A stretch of DNA of 64,000 nucleotides, taken from positions 2,496,001-2,560,000 of the forward strand of contig OZ242358.1 of the NCBI GenBank assembly GCA_965208835.1. Reading direction: 5' to 3'. A model generated the notes under the pieces. The model had not been told where the DNA came from. It worked only from the letters and a program-made list of their open reading frames with translations, and did no database searches. This stretch comes from Candidatus Latescibacterota bacterium (GTDB lineage: Bacteria > Latescibacterota > UBA2968 > GCA-2709665). Below are positions 36,981 through 42,828 of the stretch, piece after piece (within the stretch, counting starts at the first letter, position 1; every line of letters begins with the position of its first letter). A program made the translations under genes and the position numbers.

Positions 36981-37285
36981 CGAAAAACACTCGGCTGGTG
37001 GGAGTCAGGGGTACGCCATCGGGCATATGGTCCCTGGCGTGGTGCTCGTCATTCGCGTTTTGTTCTTAATGGAATCGTTCGCAATATCGGTATCGACGCC
37101 GGGCAAGTCAAGTCTGGCGCAGGGAACGGAGATTTGGTTTGGCGGAGGTCGTACTCTGGAATTTACGATACGATACGGGTCGCGGACGGCGCAAGGCCGG
37201 GAAACTGTACTGGCAGTAACGTAACCCGGGCAAGTCGCCGGGCCGAAATTTCGGCGGGGAAGCAGGCATTTCGTAGAAGGTGCCG

Positions 37286-38002
37286 ATGGGTTTTTCCAAA
37301 CACTGGTGGGATAGCCCGTTGCCTCGGGCGCGAGTTGCCGTAATCGCTGAAATGTCCACCGTGCTCGACGAAACATTCGGTGGCACGGCCCGGGACCTTG
37401 AGCGCGCGCGGCCGGACGGTCTCGATGCGCTGATGCGTACTGTCCTGTCCCAGAATACCACTGACGAAAACCGGGACAGGGCATACGACAGGATGCGTGC
37501 GCGGTTTCCGGACTGGGGCGACGTGATGGCGGCGGACGTGGCGCAACTGAAGGACGTCATACGCGTGGCGGGGCTGTCGAATACAAAAGCCCCGAATATG
37601 CAGGCGTTCCTGCGCTGGCTGAAGCGCAAACGGGGGAATCTGAACCTGGATTTCCTGCGGGATCTTCCGAATCAGGCCGCGGTATCCCTGTTGACCGAAC
37701 ACCGAGGCATCGGTGTCAAGACGGCCTATATCGTACTCGCCTTTGCGTTTGATCGGGATATGTGCGCCGTGGATACGCACGTGTATCGCATTCTGCGTCG
37801 TGTAGGGCTTGTCTCATCGCGATGCAGCCGTGAGAAAGCACACACGGAACTCGCGCCTCTGATCCCGGAGGGCCAGGCCAGGTCTTACCATACAAATATG
37901 GTTGAATTCGGCAAGACCGTATGCACGGCCAGGAATCCGTCCTGCGACGCATGTCCCGTCTCCAGGCTGTGCAGATACTACCACGAAATGCAGGGCGGAT
38001 GA
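37286..38002 (+). CDS. Endonuclease III-family HhH-GPD DNA glycosylase
   Basis: 'VLSQNTTD', 'GIGVKTA', 'VDTHVYRI', Fe-S motif 'CTARNPSCDACPVSRLC'. Confidence 0.9.
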   Translation: MGFSKHWWDSPLPRARVAVIAEMSTVLDETFGGTARDLERARPDGLDALMRTVLSQNTTDENRDRAYDRMRARFPDWGDVMAADVAQLKDVIRVAGLSNTKAPNMQAFLRWLKRKRGNLNLDFLRDLPNQAAVSLLTEHRGIGVKTAYIVLAFAFDRDMCAVDTHVYRILRRVGLVSSRCSREKAHTELAPLIPEGQARSYHTNMVEFGKTVCTARNPSCDACPVSRLCRYYHEMQGG

Positions 38003-38008
38003 GAATGG

Positions 38009-38060
38009 CAGCCCATTGAAAAAGCCCATACGGGCGGCGGCCGGCTTTCGCCGCAATGCG
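38009..38060 (+). repeat. MITE-like repeat family A, 5' fragment
   Basis: CAGCCCATTGAAAAAGCCCATACGGGCGGCGGCCGGCTTTCG resembles the first ~45 nt of 18028..18189. Confidence 0.6.
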
Positions 38061-38076
38061 GACCGACGGACGCGGA

Positions 38077-39153
38077 TTAGTCGACTCTGATTCGCTGCAG
38101 ATCGTATGAATCGACATTGTAGGGTTCGAAGGTATCGTCATCGCCCGGGGTGAATACCGCCACGTACAGATACTGATCGTTGTTGTCAATGGCGATGCCT
38201 CGTTCCCGGAGGTTTCCGGCCGCAAGAAAGTAGTTCGTCTCCAGTTTGGTCTGCGTATCGAATTCAACAATAAACACGCCCGCTTCATCGGCGTCGGTAG
38301 GCGCAACGAATAGCCGGCGGCCGTCGCGGCTCAGCGCGAGCCCCAGTGCGGGGGACTTGATTTCAAATTTCCCCGTCAGCGTCAGGTCGTCGGCGCTGAA
38401 CGCCCAGAGATCCTTCACGAGGCCGCGGTCTTCCGGATCCGCAAGACCCAGATAAAGATGCTCGTTGAAGGGTCCGATGACGAAATCGTTGATCCTGGCT
38501 GAGAAACTGAAACGGGTGGAGGTGGTCTCCGTGGTGGGGAAATGACCGGAAGCATCGTATTTCAGAACGTTGTTTCTGGCTGCAACAAAGAGCTTTCGGT
38601 CTCCGTGATTCATCTGAAGTGCGCCGGAGCGCACATTTCCGCTGGTTTCCCGATTGTCGACAATCGACACTGCAATCAGCAGCGGTTCATCCAAAGAGGA
38701 AACATAGACAATCGAGTCGGTTCCGCAGACAATATGGGAAATGTCATTGAGGGAATAAGGGACCGTCTTCACGAGGGCGAACGAATTCAGGTCGATGACT
38801 TTGAGGTTCGATTCTCCGTTCAATCCCACCACCAGATGGCGTTGGTTCGGCGTGATGTCGAGGTCGATCGGGTGGGAACCTACCTGAAGGCTCCCGTCGA
38901 CCGTCATCTGGCTGCCAAGGTGGATGCGAAGTATCCGGTTGTTACCATAGTCGGCAAGATACAGATATGGCTGGTTCGGATCCATGACCATATCGGAGAT
39001 ATTCACGCCGAGTTCCAGGATTTCGAAATCTTCAATCTTGTAGAATTGTTCCGGCTCTTCGTCGTCAAGATAGAGCGAACAGCCCGGCACAAAGAGGATT
39101 GCAAACAACACGAAAAAGACGAACCGGCGGCTTGTTGTTCCAATTCGGTCCAT
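38077..39153 (-). CDS. YncE-like beta-propeller lipoprotein
   Basis: Signal peptide with lipobox-like 'FVPGC'; blade-like repeats 'VGSHPIDLDITPN', 'GLALSRDGRRLFV'; start re-set to ATG 39153 because the upstream part is repeat-derived. Confidence 0.75.
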   Translation of the reverse strand: MDRIGTTSRRFVFFVLFAILFVPGCSLYLDDEEPEQFYKIEDFEILELGVNISDMVMDPNQPYLYLADYGNNRILRIHLGSQMTVDGSLQVGSHPIDLDITPNQRHLVVGLNGESNLKVIDLNSFALVKTVPYSLNDISHIVCGTDSIVYVSSLDEPLLIAVSIVDNRETSGNVRSGALQMNHGDRKLFVAARNNVLKYDASGHFPTTETTSTRFSFSARINDFVIGPFNEHLYLGLADPEDRGLVKDLWAFSADDLTLTGKFEIKSPALGLALSRDGRRLFVAPTDADEAGVFIVEFDTQTKLETNYFLAAGNLRERGIAIDNNDQYLYVAVFTPGDDDTFEPYNVDSYDLQRIRVD

Positions 39154-39167
39154 GCCGGATCGCCTGA

Positions 39168-39328
39168 CAGTCCGTTGAATAGAGTCGCTCTGGAGGCGAG
39201 GCCGAGCCATTGTGGTCGAAGACAAGGCTCGCGACCGAGTCCCATCCTTCGATTCGGCGAGGGAGCGCAACGAAGGTTTTCGACCGCAAGGGCCGGGCGC
39301 AGCCCGGATGGTCTGTTTCAACGGGCTG
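39168..39328 (-). repeat. MITE-like repeat family A, full copy, inverted orientation
   Basis: Minus strand CAGCCCGTTGAAA...TTCAACGGACTG; collinear with 18028..18189. Confidence 0.8.
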
Positions 39329-40294
39329 CTAGAGCGAGAAAGCATATGATGTGCTCAGCTCTATAAGATAGTCCGATGTCAGCTGGCTCTCGTTCACGTT
39401 TTGAAATACGACAATGGGCAGGTGAAATTCAACGCTCAAATTATCCAGTACATTGACCCCCAATTCAGGCGAAAGATACATCCACTTGCCTCCGCGTTCT
39501 CTGGTAATCTGGCCGAACTGGTAACGGTCCCTCGAGGTGATCAGATTTTTCAGACTCACTCCGCCATACAACCAGCCTTCACCTTCGTACTCCAGCGAAA
39601 GGCTTGCGTGCAGTTCATTGCCATATTTGTAGCCGTAGATGTTCTGTCTCGAGGTGATACGGGAAAACACGCCCGCCGATACCGAAATGGTCTCAAATTG
39701 ATGATGCACATTGAGCGCGAAAACCGGGTCCACACTTCCTGAGCCGATCTGCAGATTGTCGGCGAAACGCACGCCGTACCGGTCCTTGGCATCTACGGAA
39801 CCGTTTGCCAGCTTCAGTCCAACGCCGAGATTCACCCCGGGGAGACCCGCCGCGAGGGGTGCGGCGTAATTCAGCATGGCCACGATATCGCCAAGACCGG
39901 AAGCATGCCGGACATACTTTCCGCCTTCATACTGGTTGGGGTTCTGTCCGCGCAACAGCACCTTTTCGTTCGTAACTGAACGGAAGGGTACGGCCAACGC
40001 AAGACCGATGTGCTCCGTCACGCCCAGGGAAGCGAACAGGGTGGTTGTGGCATTGTCCGTTCGCTCGCGATTGACGTTCGGTATGGCGCGGGACCCGTAG
40101 TGGGGGTCGGACAGGAATTCGTAGTCGTAATGTACACTGAGCTTCAGCTGATCCTGTACGGCCAGACCGTTTTTCATCAGGCTCCCGCCCGGGAGCACGG
40201 GCCGTCGTCAGCTGACACCACCCTGAGCGTGGGCGGCGGGCGCCGCAATGGTTCGCGCCACGAAACACAGTAAGAGTACCGCGAACGTCCGCAT
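39329..40294 (-). CDS. Putative selenocysteine-containing outer-membrane beta-barrel (COG4313/'transporter'-like), 321 aa
   Basis: ATG 40294 with RBS encodes signal peptide MRTFAVLLLCFVARTIAAPAAHA-QGGVS, then in-frame TGA (40210-40208), then RRP continuing into track ORF 39329..40198 ('SGLGD', 'LQIGSGSVD', C-terminal 'SYAFSL'). Confidence 0.75.
40181..40196 (-). promoter_or_regulatory. Candidate bacterial SECIS element
   Basis: GCTCCC-GGGC-GGGAGC hairpin starting 11 nt 3' of the in-frame TGA, with a G-first apical loop. Confidence 0.65.
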
Positions 40295-40355
40295 TCGGGT
40301 TTTCCTCGATCCGAAAGTTGTGAACTCGCTCCAAGCGTCCGGTTTTTCGGGTTGA

Positions 40356-40384
40356 AATATACCTTACATGCGCCCGGATAGCAA
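40356..40384 (-). promoter_or_regulatory. Putative sigma70 promoter of the beta-barrel gene
   Basis: Minus strand TTGCTA-N17-TATATT. Confidence 0.5.
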
Positions 40385-40462
40385 GGCGGATTTTCTTTCG
40401 TGAGTTTACATAGAGCTCAAATTTACAAATCTTTACACAACCATTTGTCGCGCCGTTTTTGC

Positions 40463-40491
40463 TTGACACTACCGGGAGATTGGGCTATCTT
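40463..40491 (+). promoter_or_regulatory. Putative sigma70 promoter of the tRNA pair
   Basis: TTGACA-N17-TATCTT. Confidence 0.65.
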
Positions 40492-40535
40492 TAACGTCCG
40501 ATTTCCAGCAGACGGCTTCGTGCGCGGGGCTTGTA

Positions 40536-40609
<74 letters not shown>

Positions 40610-40625
40610 TATTACATCAGCTTGT

Positions 40626-40703
40626 GGTGGGTGTAGCTCAGATGGTTAGAGCGCCTGGTTGTGGCCCAGGAGGTCGGGGGTTCAAGTCCCCTCACTCACC
40701 CCA
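40626..40703 (+). tRNA. tRNA-His(GTG)
   Basis: G-1:C73, acceptor GTGGGTG/CACTCAC, anticodon arm CCTGG-TTGTGGC-CCAGG, encoded CCA. Confidence 0.95.
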
Positions 40704-40781
40704 CTCTTTGCCTGGCTGTTTCTCGCCTTTGGTTCCCCGGGGATATTGGAGCCAAAGGTTTTTTAACGTCTGAAATTGCCA

Positions 40782-42143
40782 ATGATTACGAAAAACCACC
40801 TTCGAAACGGCTCGTCACGGGCTGTGATCATCGGCCTGGATGGTACACCCTGCAGTCTGATAAACCGGTTAGTCGCCGATGGCCGAATGCCGAAATTCGC
40901 CGGGCTCCTGCAAGCCGGAAGCCTGGCGGGAATGGAATCGGTCCTGCCGACGGTATCGTCGGTCGCCTGGGCGTCGGTAGTAACCGGGTGTAATCCAGGC
41001 AAGCACAATATCTTTGGCTTTATTGATCGAGTGCCTGACACCCACGAAATGTACATTCCTACGTCCAGAACAATGCGCGCCAGGACCTGGACGGAGATTT
41101 TCAGCGGGATGGGCAGGCGTGTCTTTTCCATGGGCGTTCCGACAACCTACCCCCCACGGGCGGTGAACGGAATACTGATTTCCGGGTTTCTGGCGCCGGA
41201 TCTGAACCGGAGTACCTATCCCGCTGCGGTGGCGCGTGAGCTGGCTGCGATGGGGTACCGGATCGACATCGACTCCTGGCTCGCCCGAAGGGACAGGGAG
41301 CGATTCCTCGACGATGTCTTTCAGGCCATGGAACGGCGGTTTGACGCGATGTTCCATTTCCTGGACCAGGAACCCTGGGACCTGTTTGTCGCCCACGTCC
41401 TGGAAACGGACAGGCTGCACCATTTTCTATGGGGTCTGGTGGACGACGGCAGTCAGTCCTATCTGCCCTGGTTTCACAGGTTTTACGACCGTGTTGACCG
41501 CGCCATCGGTGAGGTTGCGGACCGGCTTGACGATGACACACTGCTGATGATTGTCTCCGACCACGGGTTCTGCAAGTTGAAGTATGAAGTCCATTTGAAT
41601 TACTGGCTGCACCAGGCCGGTTTTCTGCGTTTTCGCAGTCGCACGGCCAGGGGGCTCCGCGATCTCGCGCCCGACACACGATGTTATTCGCTATTGCCCG
41701 GGCGCATGTATCTTTCCCTGCGGGGTCGTGAGCGCGGGGGGCGCGTGGAGCCAGGCGCGGAATACGAAGCGCTGAGAGGGGATATCGCCGACGGCCTGAT
41801 GCAGATCCGGGATCCGGAAACGGGTCAGCCGGTGATCCGGAGAATCTTCAGACGCGAGGAACTCTACGCCGGTGATGCCTTCGAACTGGCGCCGGATCTG
41901 ATCGCCATGCCAGCGGCCGGTTACGATTTGAAAGGCGGTTTTGACAGTGAAGTACTGATGGATCGCGGCCCGGTAAATGGCACGCATACGTTTTCGGACG
42001 CGATGTTTTTCATCAATCGCGAGGCCGATTTGTCAAAGAAGGTCCGACTGATTGACGTGTTTCCGACGCTCTTCGATGCCGTCGGACTCGAGGTTCCCGT
42101 TGGCGTGGACGGGCGGTCCCTGGTTGCCGGCCGTGTGAACTGA
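40782..42143 (+). CDS. Alkaline-phosphatase superfamily type I phosphodiesterase/nucleotide pyrophosphatase
   Basis: 'IIGLDG', 'TGCNPGKHNIFGF', 'TDRLHH', 'VSDHGF', 'GTH'. Confidence 0.88.
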   Translation: MITKNHLRNGSSRAVIIGLDGTPCSLINRLVADGRMPKFAGLLQAGSLAGMESVLPTVSSVAWASVVTGCNPGKHNIFGFIDRVPDTHEMYIPTSRTMRARTWTEIFSGMGRRVFSMGVPTTYPPRAVNGILISGFLAPDLNRSTYPAAVARELAAMGYRIDIDSWLARRDRERFLDDVFQAMERRFDAMFHFLDQEPWDLFVAHVLETDRLHHFLWGLVDDGSQSYLPWFHRFYDRVDRAIGEVADRLDDDTLLMIVSDHGFCKLKYEVHLNYWLHQAGFLRFRSRTARGLRDLAPDTRCYSLLPGRMYLSLRGRERGGRVEPGAEYEALRGDIADGLMQIRDPETGQPVIRRIFRREELYAGDAFELAPDLIAMPAAGYDLKGGFDSEVLMDRGPVNGTHTFSDAMFFINREADLSKKVRLIDVFPTLFDAVGLEVPVGVDGRSLVAGRVN

Positions 42144-42228
42144 GTCATGGCCGGTCGTGCCGGTCGGACGCATTGGCGCGTCGCGGGACGCTCCAGCCCT
42201 TTTCACGATAGTCTTTAGTGGGGGCGTT

Positions 42229-42828
42229 ATGGCGAGACTGTTTCTGGTTCTGCTCGGAATGGGTGTCGCGGCGACCGGCGCGCACGACGACCGGGGCCAC
42301 GTTATGGACACGAGTGAAGAGAACATGGAGCGAATTGCCGCGTCACTCGGGGTACGGTGTTCCCATTGTCACACGGTACGCGGGCCGGATGGAAAACCTG
42401 ATTTCATGGCGCCTTCGCTGTTCAAGCATACAGCCGTCCATATGAAAGTCCACTTTGTGGACGGACTGAAAACCGCCGATGGAAAGGCGCTGGACTGCAT
42501 GTCTTGCCACCAGGGAAACGCCCGGTTTGTTCCACGGGACGTTGAGAACGCCAGTCCTTCCAACCTGTCGGAGCGGATGCCGCGGCGGGAGATTTACCGG
42601 AAGATGAAGGCTATCGAGAGGGCGCTTGGGGTAGACTGTGAATTCTGCCACGTCAGACGTGAGGACGGGCGCCTCGCGCCTGAGCGGCCAACCAGACATA
42701 AGCTGATGGCCAAATACATGATGGACCACTACGAGGGATCGCTGGTCACGTCGGACGGAACGCCGGTCACGTGCGGAACCTGCCACGCCGGCGCGGCTGA
42801 ATTTTTGCCGCGTACCACCGGTGAATAG
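42229..42828 (+). CDS. Exported tetraheme c-type cytochrome (duplicated diheme unit)
   Basis: Signal peptide MARLFLVLLGMGVAATGA; four CxxCH motifs (CSHCH, CMSCH, CEFCH, CGTCH). Confidence 0.85.
   Translation: MARLFLVLLGMGVAATGAHDDRGHVMDTSEENMERIAASLGVRCSHCHTVRGPDGKPDFMAPSLFKHTAVHMKVHFVDGLKTADGKALDCMSCHQGNARFVPRDVENASPSNLSERMPRREIYRKMKAIERALGVDCEFCHVRREDGRLAPERPTRHKLMAKYMMDHYEGSLVTSDGTPVTCGTCHAGAAEFLPRTTGE

Follow-up and report, generated by a model that had tools for sequence, protein, structure and literature searches.

To our knowledge, nearly all known bacterial selenoproteins are soluble oxidoreductases that were found through pairs of selenocysteine (Sec) and cysteine (Cys) homologues. 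We describe here a gene that departs from this picture, located on the minus strand at 39329-40294 of a 64,000-nucleotide (nt) stretch of DNA (the window; positions 2,496,001 to 2,560,000 of contig OZ242358.1) in the genome of a Candidatus Latescibacterota bacterium, available as a single 5.18-Mb contig. The gene very probably encodes a hidden selenoprotein, and its product is predicted to be an outer-membrane barrel. Among the outer-membrane entries of the prokaryotic selenoprotein family table of PMC13188914 are a GSU2204/MtrB-PioB barrel (NF041027) and a TonB-dependent receptor with the motif FCYXU (NF049945), and the table holds no PF13557, phenol or COG4313 entry. The BSepDB paper makes no mention of outer-membrane proteins or porins. 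The channel closest in fold to the window protein, the COG4313 member Pput2725 of Pseudomonas putida F1 (PDB 4RL8), is described, in passages of the structural report, as having its first ~14 residues in the lumen, from the periplasmic side (PMC4493636). In full-text literature searches the family presented here was not found described, and it may nevertheless be listed in some supplementary table.

Translation from the ATG at 40294-40292 to the stop codon at 39331-39329 gives 321 codons when a single in-frame TGA is read through, and the resulting protein would consist of a signal peptide, the Sec residue, an N-terminal segment and a 12-strand barrel. All the features of the gene lie on the minus strand. 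A Shine-Dalgarno-like GAGGA (40303-40307) is found 8 nt 5' of the ATG. Codons 1-23 (40226-40294; MRTFAVLLLCFVARTIAAPAAHA) read as a signal peptide that ends in AHA, after which cleavage is likely as judged by eye. The mature chain opens with the nonapeptide Q-G-G-V-S-U-R-R-P (Q1 to P9; 40199-40225), conserved among the homologues compared; the only in-frame TGA is codon 29, or mature residue 6 (40208-40210), preceded by Q-G-G-V-S and followed by RRPVLPGG and then by an open frame, and its assignment as Sec comes from conservation across homologues. The sole Cys, C10, lies within the signal peptide, the mature protein has none, and Sec would thereby be its only chalcogen nucleophile. A program-made list of open reading frames begins the gene at the GTG at 40198, after the TGA. 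An earlier note on this DNA had placed upstream of that frame an ATG with its ribosome-binding site, a signal peptide, QGGVS, one TGA and RRPVLPGG, together with a GCTCCC-GGGC-GGGAGC hairpin 11 nt after the TGA and a mature protein devoid of Cys, and all of these could be read at the places given. Its central proposal, a Sec hidden in an outer-membrane barrel and missed by gene callers, has gained from the comparisons below, in which the TGA is conserved, the Sec machinery complete, the hairpin covarying and the fold the one named.

The case for a selenoprotein is built on comparison and not on the hairpin alone, because neither the energy of the hairpin nor the occurrence of a TGA followed by a hairpin is beyond chance. 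What does appear to go beyond chance is the conservation of the TGA, the covariation of the stem and the switches of codon family around the stop. A six-frame search of 61 related genomes recovered the gene in all 14 other members of the genus and in two of a second genus (the self-match has 100% identity and 1 TGA). Exactly one TGA was carried by 33/33 of the full or partial matches that span the column, from 17 genomes of the two genera, and a paralogue ~50% identical, also with TGA, is present in every genome of the genus. The flanking peptide AQ[GP]GVS-TGA-RRPVLPGG was seen in 27/27 loci inspected. When 168 genomes of the phylum were searched with a profile, the TGA was present in 34/34 column-spanning matches from 18 genomes, one of them, belonging to another family, being added by this search (G068; E 1.4e-38, one TGA). 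Scanning of metagenome contigs gave 36 more loci at 29-88% identity, of which 32 have the TGA at the same column; three of the remaining four are cut before the N-terminus, and the fourth and most distant (L098, 29% identity) has the TGA in a variant motif, AGVK-TGA-ASPNLPVGG. Taking metagenome and genome loci that hold the N-terminal region, L116 included, the codon is present in 34/34 and down to 29% identity. It is thus strongly supported that the gene belongs to a broad family, represented in Latescibacterota and in other marine bacteria, whose predicted Sec codon is kept over this distance, and in these genome and metagenome loci the conserved TGA that the earlier note had asked of homologues was there wherever the column or region was spanned. 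Its members are widespread among uncultured bacteria, both marine and sponge-associated.

The sequence around the TGA behaves as coding on both sides. In 47/47 distinct 57-nt sequences the TGA is invariant, and the residues next to it are kept while their codons move between families: Ser(-1) has AGY codons in 34 and TCN codons in 10, Arg(+1) has CGN in 34 and AGR in 12, and Arg(+2) has CGN in 32 and AGR in 13. Such switches with the residue kept, at Ser(-1) and Arg(+1), imply that a single frame is translated across the stop and that selection acts at the protein level on both sides; both flanks are under purifying selection. A signal peptide is found in each homologue only upstream of the TGA, variable in sequence but always beginning with M-K/R, continuing through hydrophobic residues and closing with small-x-small. 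Downstream of the TGA there is no conserved start codon, position +4 being Val, Ile, Leu, Ala or Asn and +10 being Met in 10/47. In the databases the family is disguised in two ways. Some proteins (P0038, P0056 and others) have an apparent Trp at the column where the DNA of matching loci reads TGA, so that the W of these entries is evidently a TGA called under another genetic code; most other entries are truncations of 282-289 residues, for which gene callers start at V33 or M39. Recognition of the family would correct many such annotations, both the 282-residue truncations and the W at the stop.

The candidate selenocysteine insertion sequence (SECIS) at 40181-40196 is a hairpin, GCUCCC/GGGAGC, with a stem of 6 base pairs (bp) and the loop GGGC, recognised by its sequence, its covariation and the constraints of the bSECIS model. 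The stem begins 11 nt after the UGA and the loop after 17 nt. The hairpin lies within the codons for V-L-P-G-G-S, and its stem is formed from codons for Leu (CUN), Pro (CC) and Gly-Ser/Arg (GGN AG). Over the stem columns (24-29/34-39), 93.3% of the cells are paired against 85.4% in column shuffles (0/500 reach the observed value), pairing drops to 27-68% when the partner strand is slid by 1 to 3 columns, and the covariation score is 0.266 against 0.110 in the shuffles (0/500). The pair made by two synonymous third positions is the clearest instance, being CG in 30, UA in 8, AU in 4, UG in 4 and GC in 1, with 0/47 unpaired. Codon choice tells the same: within the stem Ser(+9) is AGY in 33/33 and Leu(+5) is CTN in 47/47, while outside it both codon families occur at Ser(-1) and at Leu(+10). 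Loops among the relatives are GGGC, AGGU, UGGA, GGUC and similar. The bSECIS model, as set out in passages of PMC13188914, asks for a loop of 3-9 nt, a stem of 4-16 bp, a G within the first two positions of the loop, a distance of 16-37 nt from UGA to loop and a minimum free energy of at most -7.5. The barrel hairpin falls within all of these limits (loop 4 nt, stem 5-6 bp, G-G/U, 17 nt, -13.9 kcal/mol over 42 nt), which bears out its earlier description as a SECIS; in 3/49 distinct relatives the same 42 nt fold slightly less stably than -7.5 (-6.2, -7.3 and -7.4). An Rfam scan of 39000-40800 gave nothing at the hairpin, its matches being two tRNAs and two sub-threshold ones.

Other TGA codons followed by hairpins occur in this genome. 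Three in-frame TGA with a SECIS-like hairpin have long open frames on both sides, at 3113939(-), 1786706(-) and 3879280(-) of the contig, the first with 257 codons before the TGA and 600 after, and these sites may be additional selenoprotein genes. A dispersed repeat, AR-TGA-K(S/R)PSGLRPALAV, with a GGGCTG-CGGC-CGGCCC hairpin 12 nt after the TGA, is present genome-wide in at least 10 copies, at 168399(+), 422254(+), 1367903(+), 2102821(+), 3122558(+), 3749204(+), 4574130(-), 4120835(-), 3416616(-) and 1221080(-); it looks like a dispersed element of the repetitive extragenic palindrome (REP) type rather than a set of selenoprotein genes.

The genome has what is required for Sec insertion, and selA, selB, selC and selD, which the earlier note had listed as a check, are all four present. 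The tRNA-Sec scores 73.4 bits (gathering score 47), selA 483 bits and selB 75 bits on its wing domain, the three being clustered at 3.536-3.540 Mb, and selD (359 bits; 4401300-4402223(+), locus L015) itself has one in-frame TGA. The product of selD is thus a selenoprotein too (TCG-U-AAK), with a SECIS that agrees with that of the barrel gene in spacing and in type of loop; used as an internal control, it shows a spacer of 10-11 nt, a stem of 6-7 bp and the loop GGUC. The code is not reassigned, since TGA is the commonest ordinary stop in the genome, ending 1105/2095 of the open frames of >=400 codons. selB was found in 18/18 genomes with the TGA barrel.

To place the residue in a structure, an AlphaFold2 model of the mature chain was built with 36 homologues (predicted local distance difference test, pLDDT, 88.6; predicted template-modelling score 0.86). 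Its best structural match is Pput2725 (4rl8_C), with Z 25.7 and a root-mean-square deviation of 2.3 over 252/268 residues, so that the COG4313-type label proposed for this protein holds by fold. FapF (PDB 5O65) comes next at Z 23.7 (Foldseek E 6e-13), followed by autotransporter barrels, and the copper channel PcoB is among the weaker matches (Z 12.9). Sequence comparison gives far less. The read-through protein has no match in Pfam (E <= 1) or NCBIfam, the relatives P0038, P0056, P0089 and P0121 have none in NCBIfam, and nothing beyond a chance match (E 0.51) came from searching PDB sequences with a profile; PF13557 (cut-off 22) is reached by P0003, a 91% identical relative (28.6 bits), and by P0096 (23.0 bits). 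Residues 12-296 of the model superpose on residues 1-268 of 4rl8_C, residues 12-25, with a short helix at 13-19, being equivalent to the N-terminal segment of Pput2725. The statement that this segment occludes the lumen in the solved structure agrees with what passages of PMC4493636 describe. Sec, at residue 6, precedes by ~6 residues the segment whose superposition begins at Pput2725 residue 1. Of the earlier proposal that Sec is in the plug, the position at mature residue 6 stands, while a location in the plug itself would depend on a part of the model with pLDDT ~63; we infer that Sec is residue 4-6 of the mature protein and comes shortly before the stretch that occupies the lumen in the solved relative.

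A way to approach the role of this residue is to look at the genes that accompany the barrel, and for this purpose neighbouring open reading frames were clustered across 39 loci. A TlpA/ResA-like periplasmic thioredoxin with a WCxxC motif lies just upstream of the barrel in 12/39. Among these 12 is a paralogue locus of the same genome (1989306-1992293; L063, L127), in which an NHL-repeat beta-propeller lipoprotein, a TlpA-like thioredoxin (in the region of 1990382-1991068) and the TGA barrel follow each other in this order. Furthermore, a PF00085 thioredoxin domain is fused to the C-terminus of the barrel in 7/7 long relatives, all of one clade (L098:2561-3823 and the database proteins P0075, P0076, P0080, P0087, P0176 and P0209); L098, for which the DNA is at hand, shows the TGA, and the six database fusions begin right after the would-be TGA. 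In a barrel with an even number of strands both termini are on the periplasmic side, and the fused thioredoxin would therefore sit beside the Sec-bearing N-terminus. Directly 3' of the barrel, in 29/39 loci and often overlapping it by a few bases, is a beta-propeller lipoprotein. The one in the window (38077-39153, minus strand; start M at 39153 or possibly 39210) is a co-transcribed neighbour with seven blades and the lipobox VPGC, and it matches PF10282 Lactonase (28.1 bits) and SGL. A protein with FG-GAP/VCBS and ASPIC/UnbV domains is nearby in 18/39 loci (e.g., L072-L076 and L084-L094), and the one complete member that was scanned has a type-9-secretion C-terminal sorting domain.

We regard it as likely that the observations as a whole are best explained by a selenoprotein barrel of the COG4313/FapF type, belonging to a broad family and carrying a selenol that may be serviced by thioredoxin. 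SelB would be directed to the UGA at codon 29 by the SECIS hairpin 11 nt downstream and the ribosome would insert Sec; the product would be exported through its signal peptide and would fold as a 12-strand outer-membrane barrel of this type. The selenol could then be oxidised, or could react with a substrate on its way past to give an Se-S or Se-Se adduct, and it would be restored by a periplasmic CxxC protein of thioredoxin fold, encoded beside the barrel or fused to its C-terminus, with the beta-propeller lipoprotein as a probable third component. The incorporation of Sec is in this scheme a prediction, and the role of the selenol is drawn from context. The thioredoxin neighbourhood and the fusion are the main reason to favour a redox-coupled selenol, and they favour the second option offered in the earlier note, a redox role. 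Among the possible functions our tentative preference, held with less than even confidence, is for a redox-active selenol that is located at the entrance of the COG4313-fold barrel, periplasmic or lumenal, and is serviced there by thioredoxin.

The relatives that have no Sec help to judge this proposal. Two of the near-full-length close homologues in the database are Ser forms, P0015 (SRRPALLGG) and P0019 (SRHPVLPGG). A tree of 73 barrel bodies was computed by maximum likelihood (rows hand-chosen to include all distinct Sec loci, six non-Sec, six fusion and six Cys-Cys proteins of 147 listed representatives; midpoint root for drawing only, long branches flagged as unreliably placed), and in it the Sec clade has 55 rows with support 100/98. 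The Ser forms look like a secondary loss of Sec. Sec is also found on two further deep branches, in L116, beside Glu/Lys forms, and in the thioredoxin-fusion clade. The wider superfamily, 2244 representatives at E <= 1e-3 and 21 at <= 1e-30, is mostly from Bacteroidota/Balneolota and has the atlas name MetA-pathway family. Among 119 listed full-length representatives, the signal peptide is followed by Q-x-C-C in 66 and Q-x-C-x-C in 9, and the first Pro is eight residues past the Q in 62/75 of these Cys-Cys/C-x-C representatives, the same Q1..P9 frame as in Q-G-G-V-S-U-R-R-P. Other branches have C-G-x3-C-P (C-G-x3-C-P-L-D) or C-D-[FY]-C-I at the N-terminus. The N-terminal module thus appears as a recurrent thiol site in which Sec is two to three positions from the Cys pair, a likeness of place. 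A Sec/Cys pair at the same column was considered, given that the alignment by hidden Markov model puts C there in 18 other rows, and was not upheld: counted from the conserved Q and P, the Cys are at 3-4 or at 3 and 5 and Sec is at 6. Most of the listed Bacteroidota/Balneolota relatives (P0088-P0215) open their mature chain with Q-x-C-C-S-x-G-x-P.

A number of these observations weigh against the proposal. The hairpin is short, and the energy of the 66-nt stretch that contains it, -23.6 kcal/mol, differs little from the mean of shuffled sequences, -21.7 (z -0.58), with 52/200 of the shuffles folding as well; a loose pattern of TGA plus hairpin occurs 148 times in the genome, 26 with open frames on both sides. 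Part of the conservation of the hairpin is forced by the peptide LPGG, which is kept in the Ser forms too. That selB accompanies the TGA barrel says little, as selB is present in 130/168 genomes of the phylum. Cys homologues at the column, expected by the earlier note, did not appear: the 5 near-full-length close database homologues have Cys in 0/5 (2 Ser, and 3 W that stand for TGA), and more distant relatives have Glu, Lys or Pro. Such Cys homologues are customarily used in the search for selenoproteins, although they do not define one. Since both Ser forms fall inside the Sec clade, the gene can persist after its chalcogen is gone, and Sec is less readily seen as an essential catalytic residue. 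A location of Sec in the lumen depends on residues 1-10 of the model, whose mean pLDDT is 63. As to the partners, no thioredoxin gene is found at the window's own locus or at 27/39 of the loci, many of them short, and the propeller lipoproteins have the lipobox Cys in 24/24 and no other invariant Cys, two members having that Cys only. An Se-S tether between barrel and propeller lipoprotein, another candidate, was dropped, there being no invariant lipoprotein Cys besides that of the lipobox.

If Sec is real, its role could be other than redox. The most serious competitor, which was the first option of the earlier note and which we hold to be rather unlikely and yet worth attention, has Sec as a ligand or gate for a soft metal or metalloid in the plug (Cu(I), Hg, Cd, As or the like), with thioredoxin only keeping Sec reduced, and TlpA does keep the copper sites of ScoI and CoxB reduced. 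The vicinal Cys-Cys, C-x-C and C-G-x3-C of the distant relatives, at the same N-terminal place, are motifs typical of metal sites, and the similarity to PcoB, weaker as it is, goes in the same direction. Many predicted Sec transporters are tied to metals, according to passages of PMC13188914. However, the conserved neighbours in the 39 loci include no metal-handling gene, a lone Sec with no second ligand in the mature protein makes a poor metal site, and Sec is replaced in relatives by Ser, Glu, Lys and Pro. A bolder reading, which we consider improbable, would join the barrel, the propeller lipoprotein and the thioredoxin, whether fused or encoded alongside, into a chalcogen relay at the outer membrane. 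In this relay the selenol near the N-terminus, with its two flanking arginines (S-U-R-R-P), would covalently capture at the channel either an anionic S or Se species (selenite, thiosulfate or polysulfide being examples) or an oxidant, and thioredoxin would release what was captured into the periplasm. If true, this would be the first dedicated outer-membrane device for uptake or detoxification through an Se-S or Se-Se intermediate, and it could explain why Cys does not substitute for Sec here.

The remaining alternatives question Sec itself. That the UGA is read through without selenium, by near-cognate insertion of Trp, Cys or Gly and with the hairpin as a stimulator, would be compatible with a Sec that is predicted here from sequence and with the finding that no homologue has Cys at the column. 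Against it stand the geometry and the G-G/U loop of the hairpin, which match bacterial SECIS elements and the genome's own selD, the presence of selB in every genome that carries the gene, and the persistence of TGA in all 47 sequences over a deep divergence when a sense codon would do for an ordinary residue, and we consider this reading very unlikely. Even less credit can be given to the UGA as a true stop, in which case the upstream frame would encode a leader peptide, the barrel would begin at an internal GTG or ATG and the hairpin would be regulatory. The starts chosen by gene callers, the short database entries and the frequent use of TGA as a stop in this genome would fit. Yet the barrel would then be left with no export signal, while an in-frame signal peptide always precedes the TGA; RRPxLP, between the TGA and any start, is conserved as protein with switches of the Arg codon family; in many members position +4 is Ile or Leu and position +10 is not Met, so that no start is conserved; and the Ser forms are continuous proteins of the same architecture. 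Finally, a pseudogene with a nonsense mutation or an assembly error, which a lone in-frame stop in an otherwise intact gene might suggest, is already refuted by the recurrence of this TGA in 18 independently assembled genomes and in dozens of contigs from metagenomes. The selection on both flanks also speaks against it, as do contigs from three sequencing runs of other studies that cover the site with no difference at 40208-40210 among the matches listed.

This check of the reads covered four runs, all as Logan contigs, and hence reports presence only; a contig from an RNA library covers only 39387-39608 at a depth of 2.2 and does not show transcription. Upstream of the gene there is a sigma-70-like promoter match, TTGCTA-17-TATATT (40356-40384, minus strand), ~60 nt 5' of the ATG, identified by consensus only, in a scanned region where 4 such sites were found and 1.4 are expected; no terminator-like site was found in 37900-40600. 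Directly upstream of the barrel gene, on the opposite strand, are tRNA-Arg(TCT) (40536-40609, plus) and tRNA-His(GTG) (40627-40703, plus). The flanks hold, also on the plus strand, a small multihaem cytochrome c (42157-42828; Cytochrome_C7, MtrC/MtrF-like), a type I phosphodiesterase (40776-42143) and an endonuclease III homologue (37280-38002), and no link of the cytochrome, the phosphodiesterase or the endonuclease III homologue to the barrel was seen in the other loci.

Compared with known systems, the window protein shares with Pput2725 (COG4313/PF13557) the 12-strand barrel and an N-terminal segment before strand 1, and differs by an identity of only ~11%, by a mature N-terminus ~11 residues longer that carries the predicted Sec, and by having thioredoxin and a beta-propeller lipoprotein as neighbours instead of aromatic-degradation genes; the annotated neighbours give no hint of aromatic catabolism. 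With FapF it shares the fold and the short helix before the first strand, but it lacks the long periplasmic coiled-coil region and has the predicted Sec, and no fap-type neighbours are found among the conserved neighbour genes of the 39 loci (thioredoxin, beta-propeller lipoprotein, FG-GAP/ASPIC). The thioredoxin partner resembles the TlpA, ResA and DsbE reductases in its WCxxC, signal peptide and matches to AhpC-TSA, Redoxin, Thioredoxin_8 and ResA (46.9 bits). Its NCBIfam scores are, however, all far below the equivalog cut-offs, and its proposed client is an outer-membrane selenol instead of a cytochrome or copper site. The Cys-Cys PF13557-like barrels are homologous (profile E 1e-20 to 1e-29) and keep the Q1..P9 frame, but have two thiols at positions 3-4 or 3 and 5 rather than a single Sec at 6, and they form a separate clade (support 100/100).

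The listed GSU2204/MtrB-PioB barrel and TonB receptor are alike in being outer-membrane beta-barrels predicted with Sec, while their folds and families differ from those of the window barrel, and an NCBIfam scan of the window protein and three relatives gave no match. The TonB receptor has Cys homologues, according to passages of PMC12013277, whereas the window family has none at the column. We believe that the family was missed because current finders rely on Sec/Cys pairs. The authors of deep-Sep indicate, in passages of the same paper, that it may miss selenoproteins without Cys homologues, and passages of the Global Ocean Sampling (GOS) survey report that all new families had Cys homologues (PMC2398784). 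The family is therefore a concrete example for improving such finders. What would be new here is an unlisted selenoprotein family, with its thioredoxin neighbours and fusions and the adjacent propeller lipoprotein. It would also open to experiment a case in which a selenol and a thioredoxin domain come together on the periplasmic side of a barrel in the outer membrane. Set beside the soluble oxidoreductases that make up most known bacterial selenoproteins, it stands apart by its predicted outer-membrane channel fold, by a lone Sec at the very start of the mature chain and by a column at which two close relatives have Ser and no Cys form was seen.

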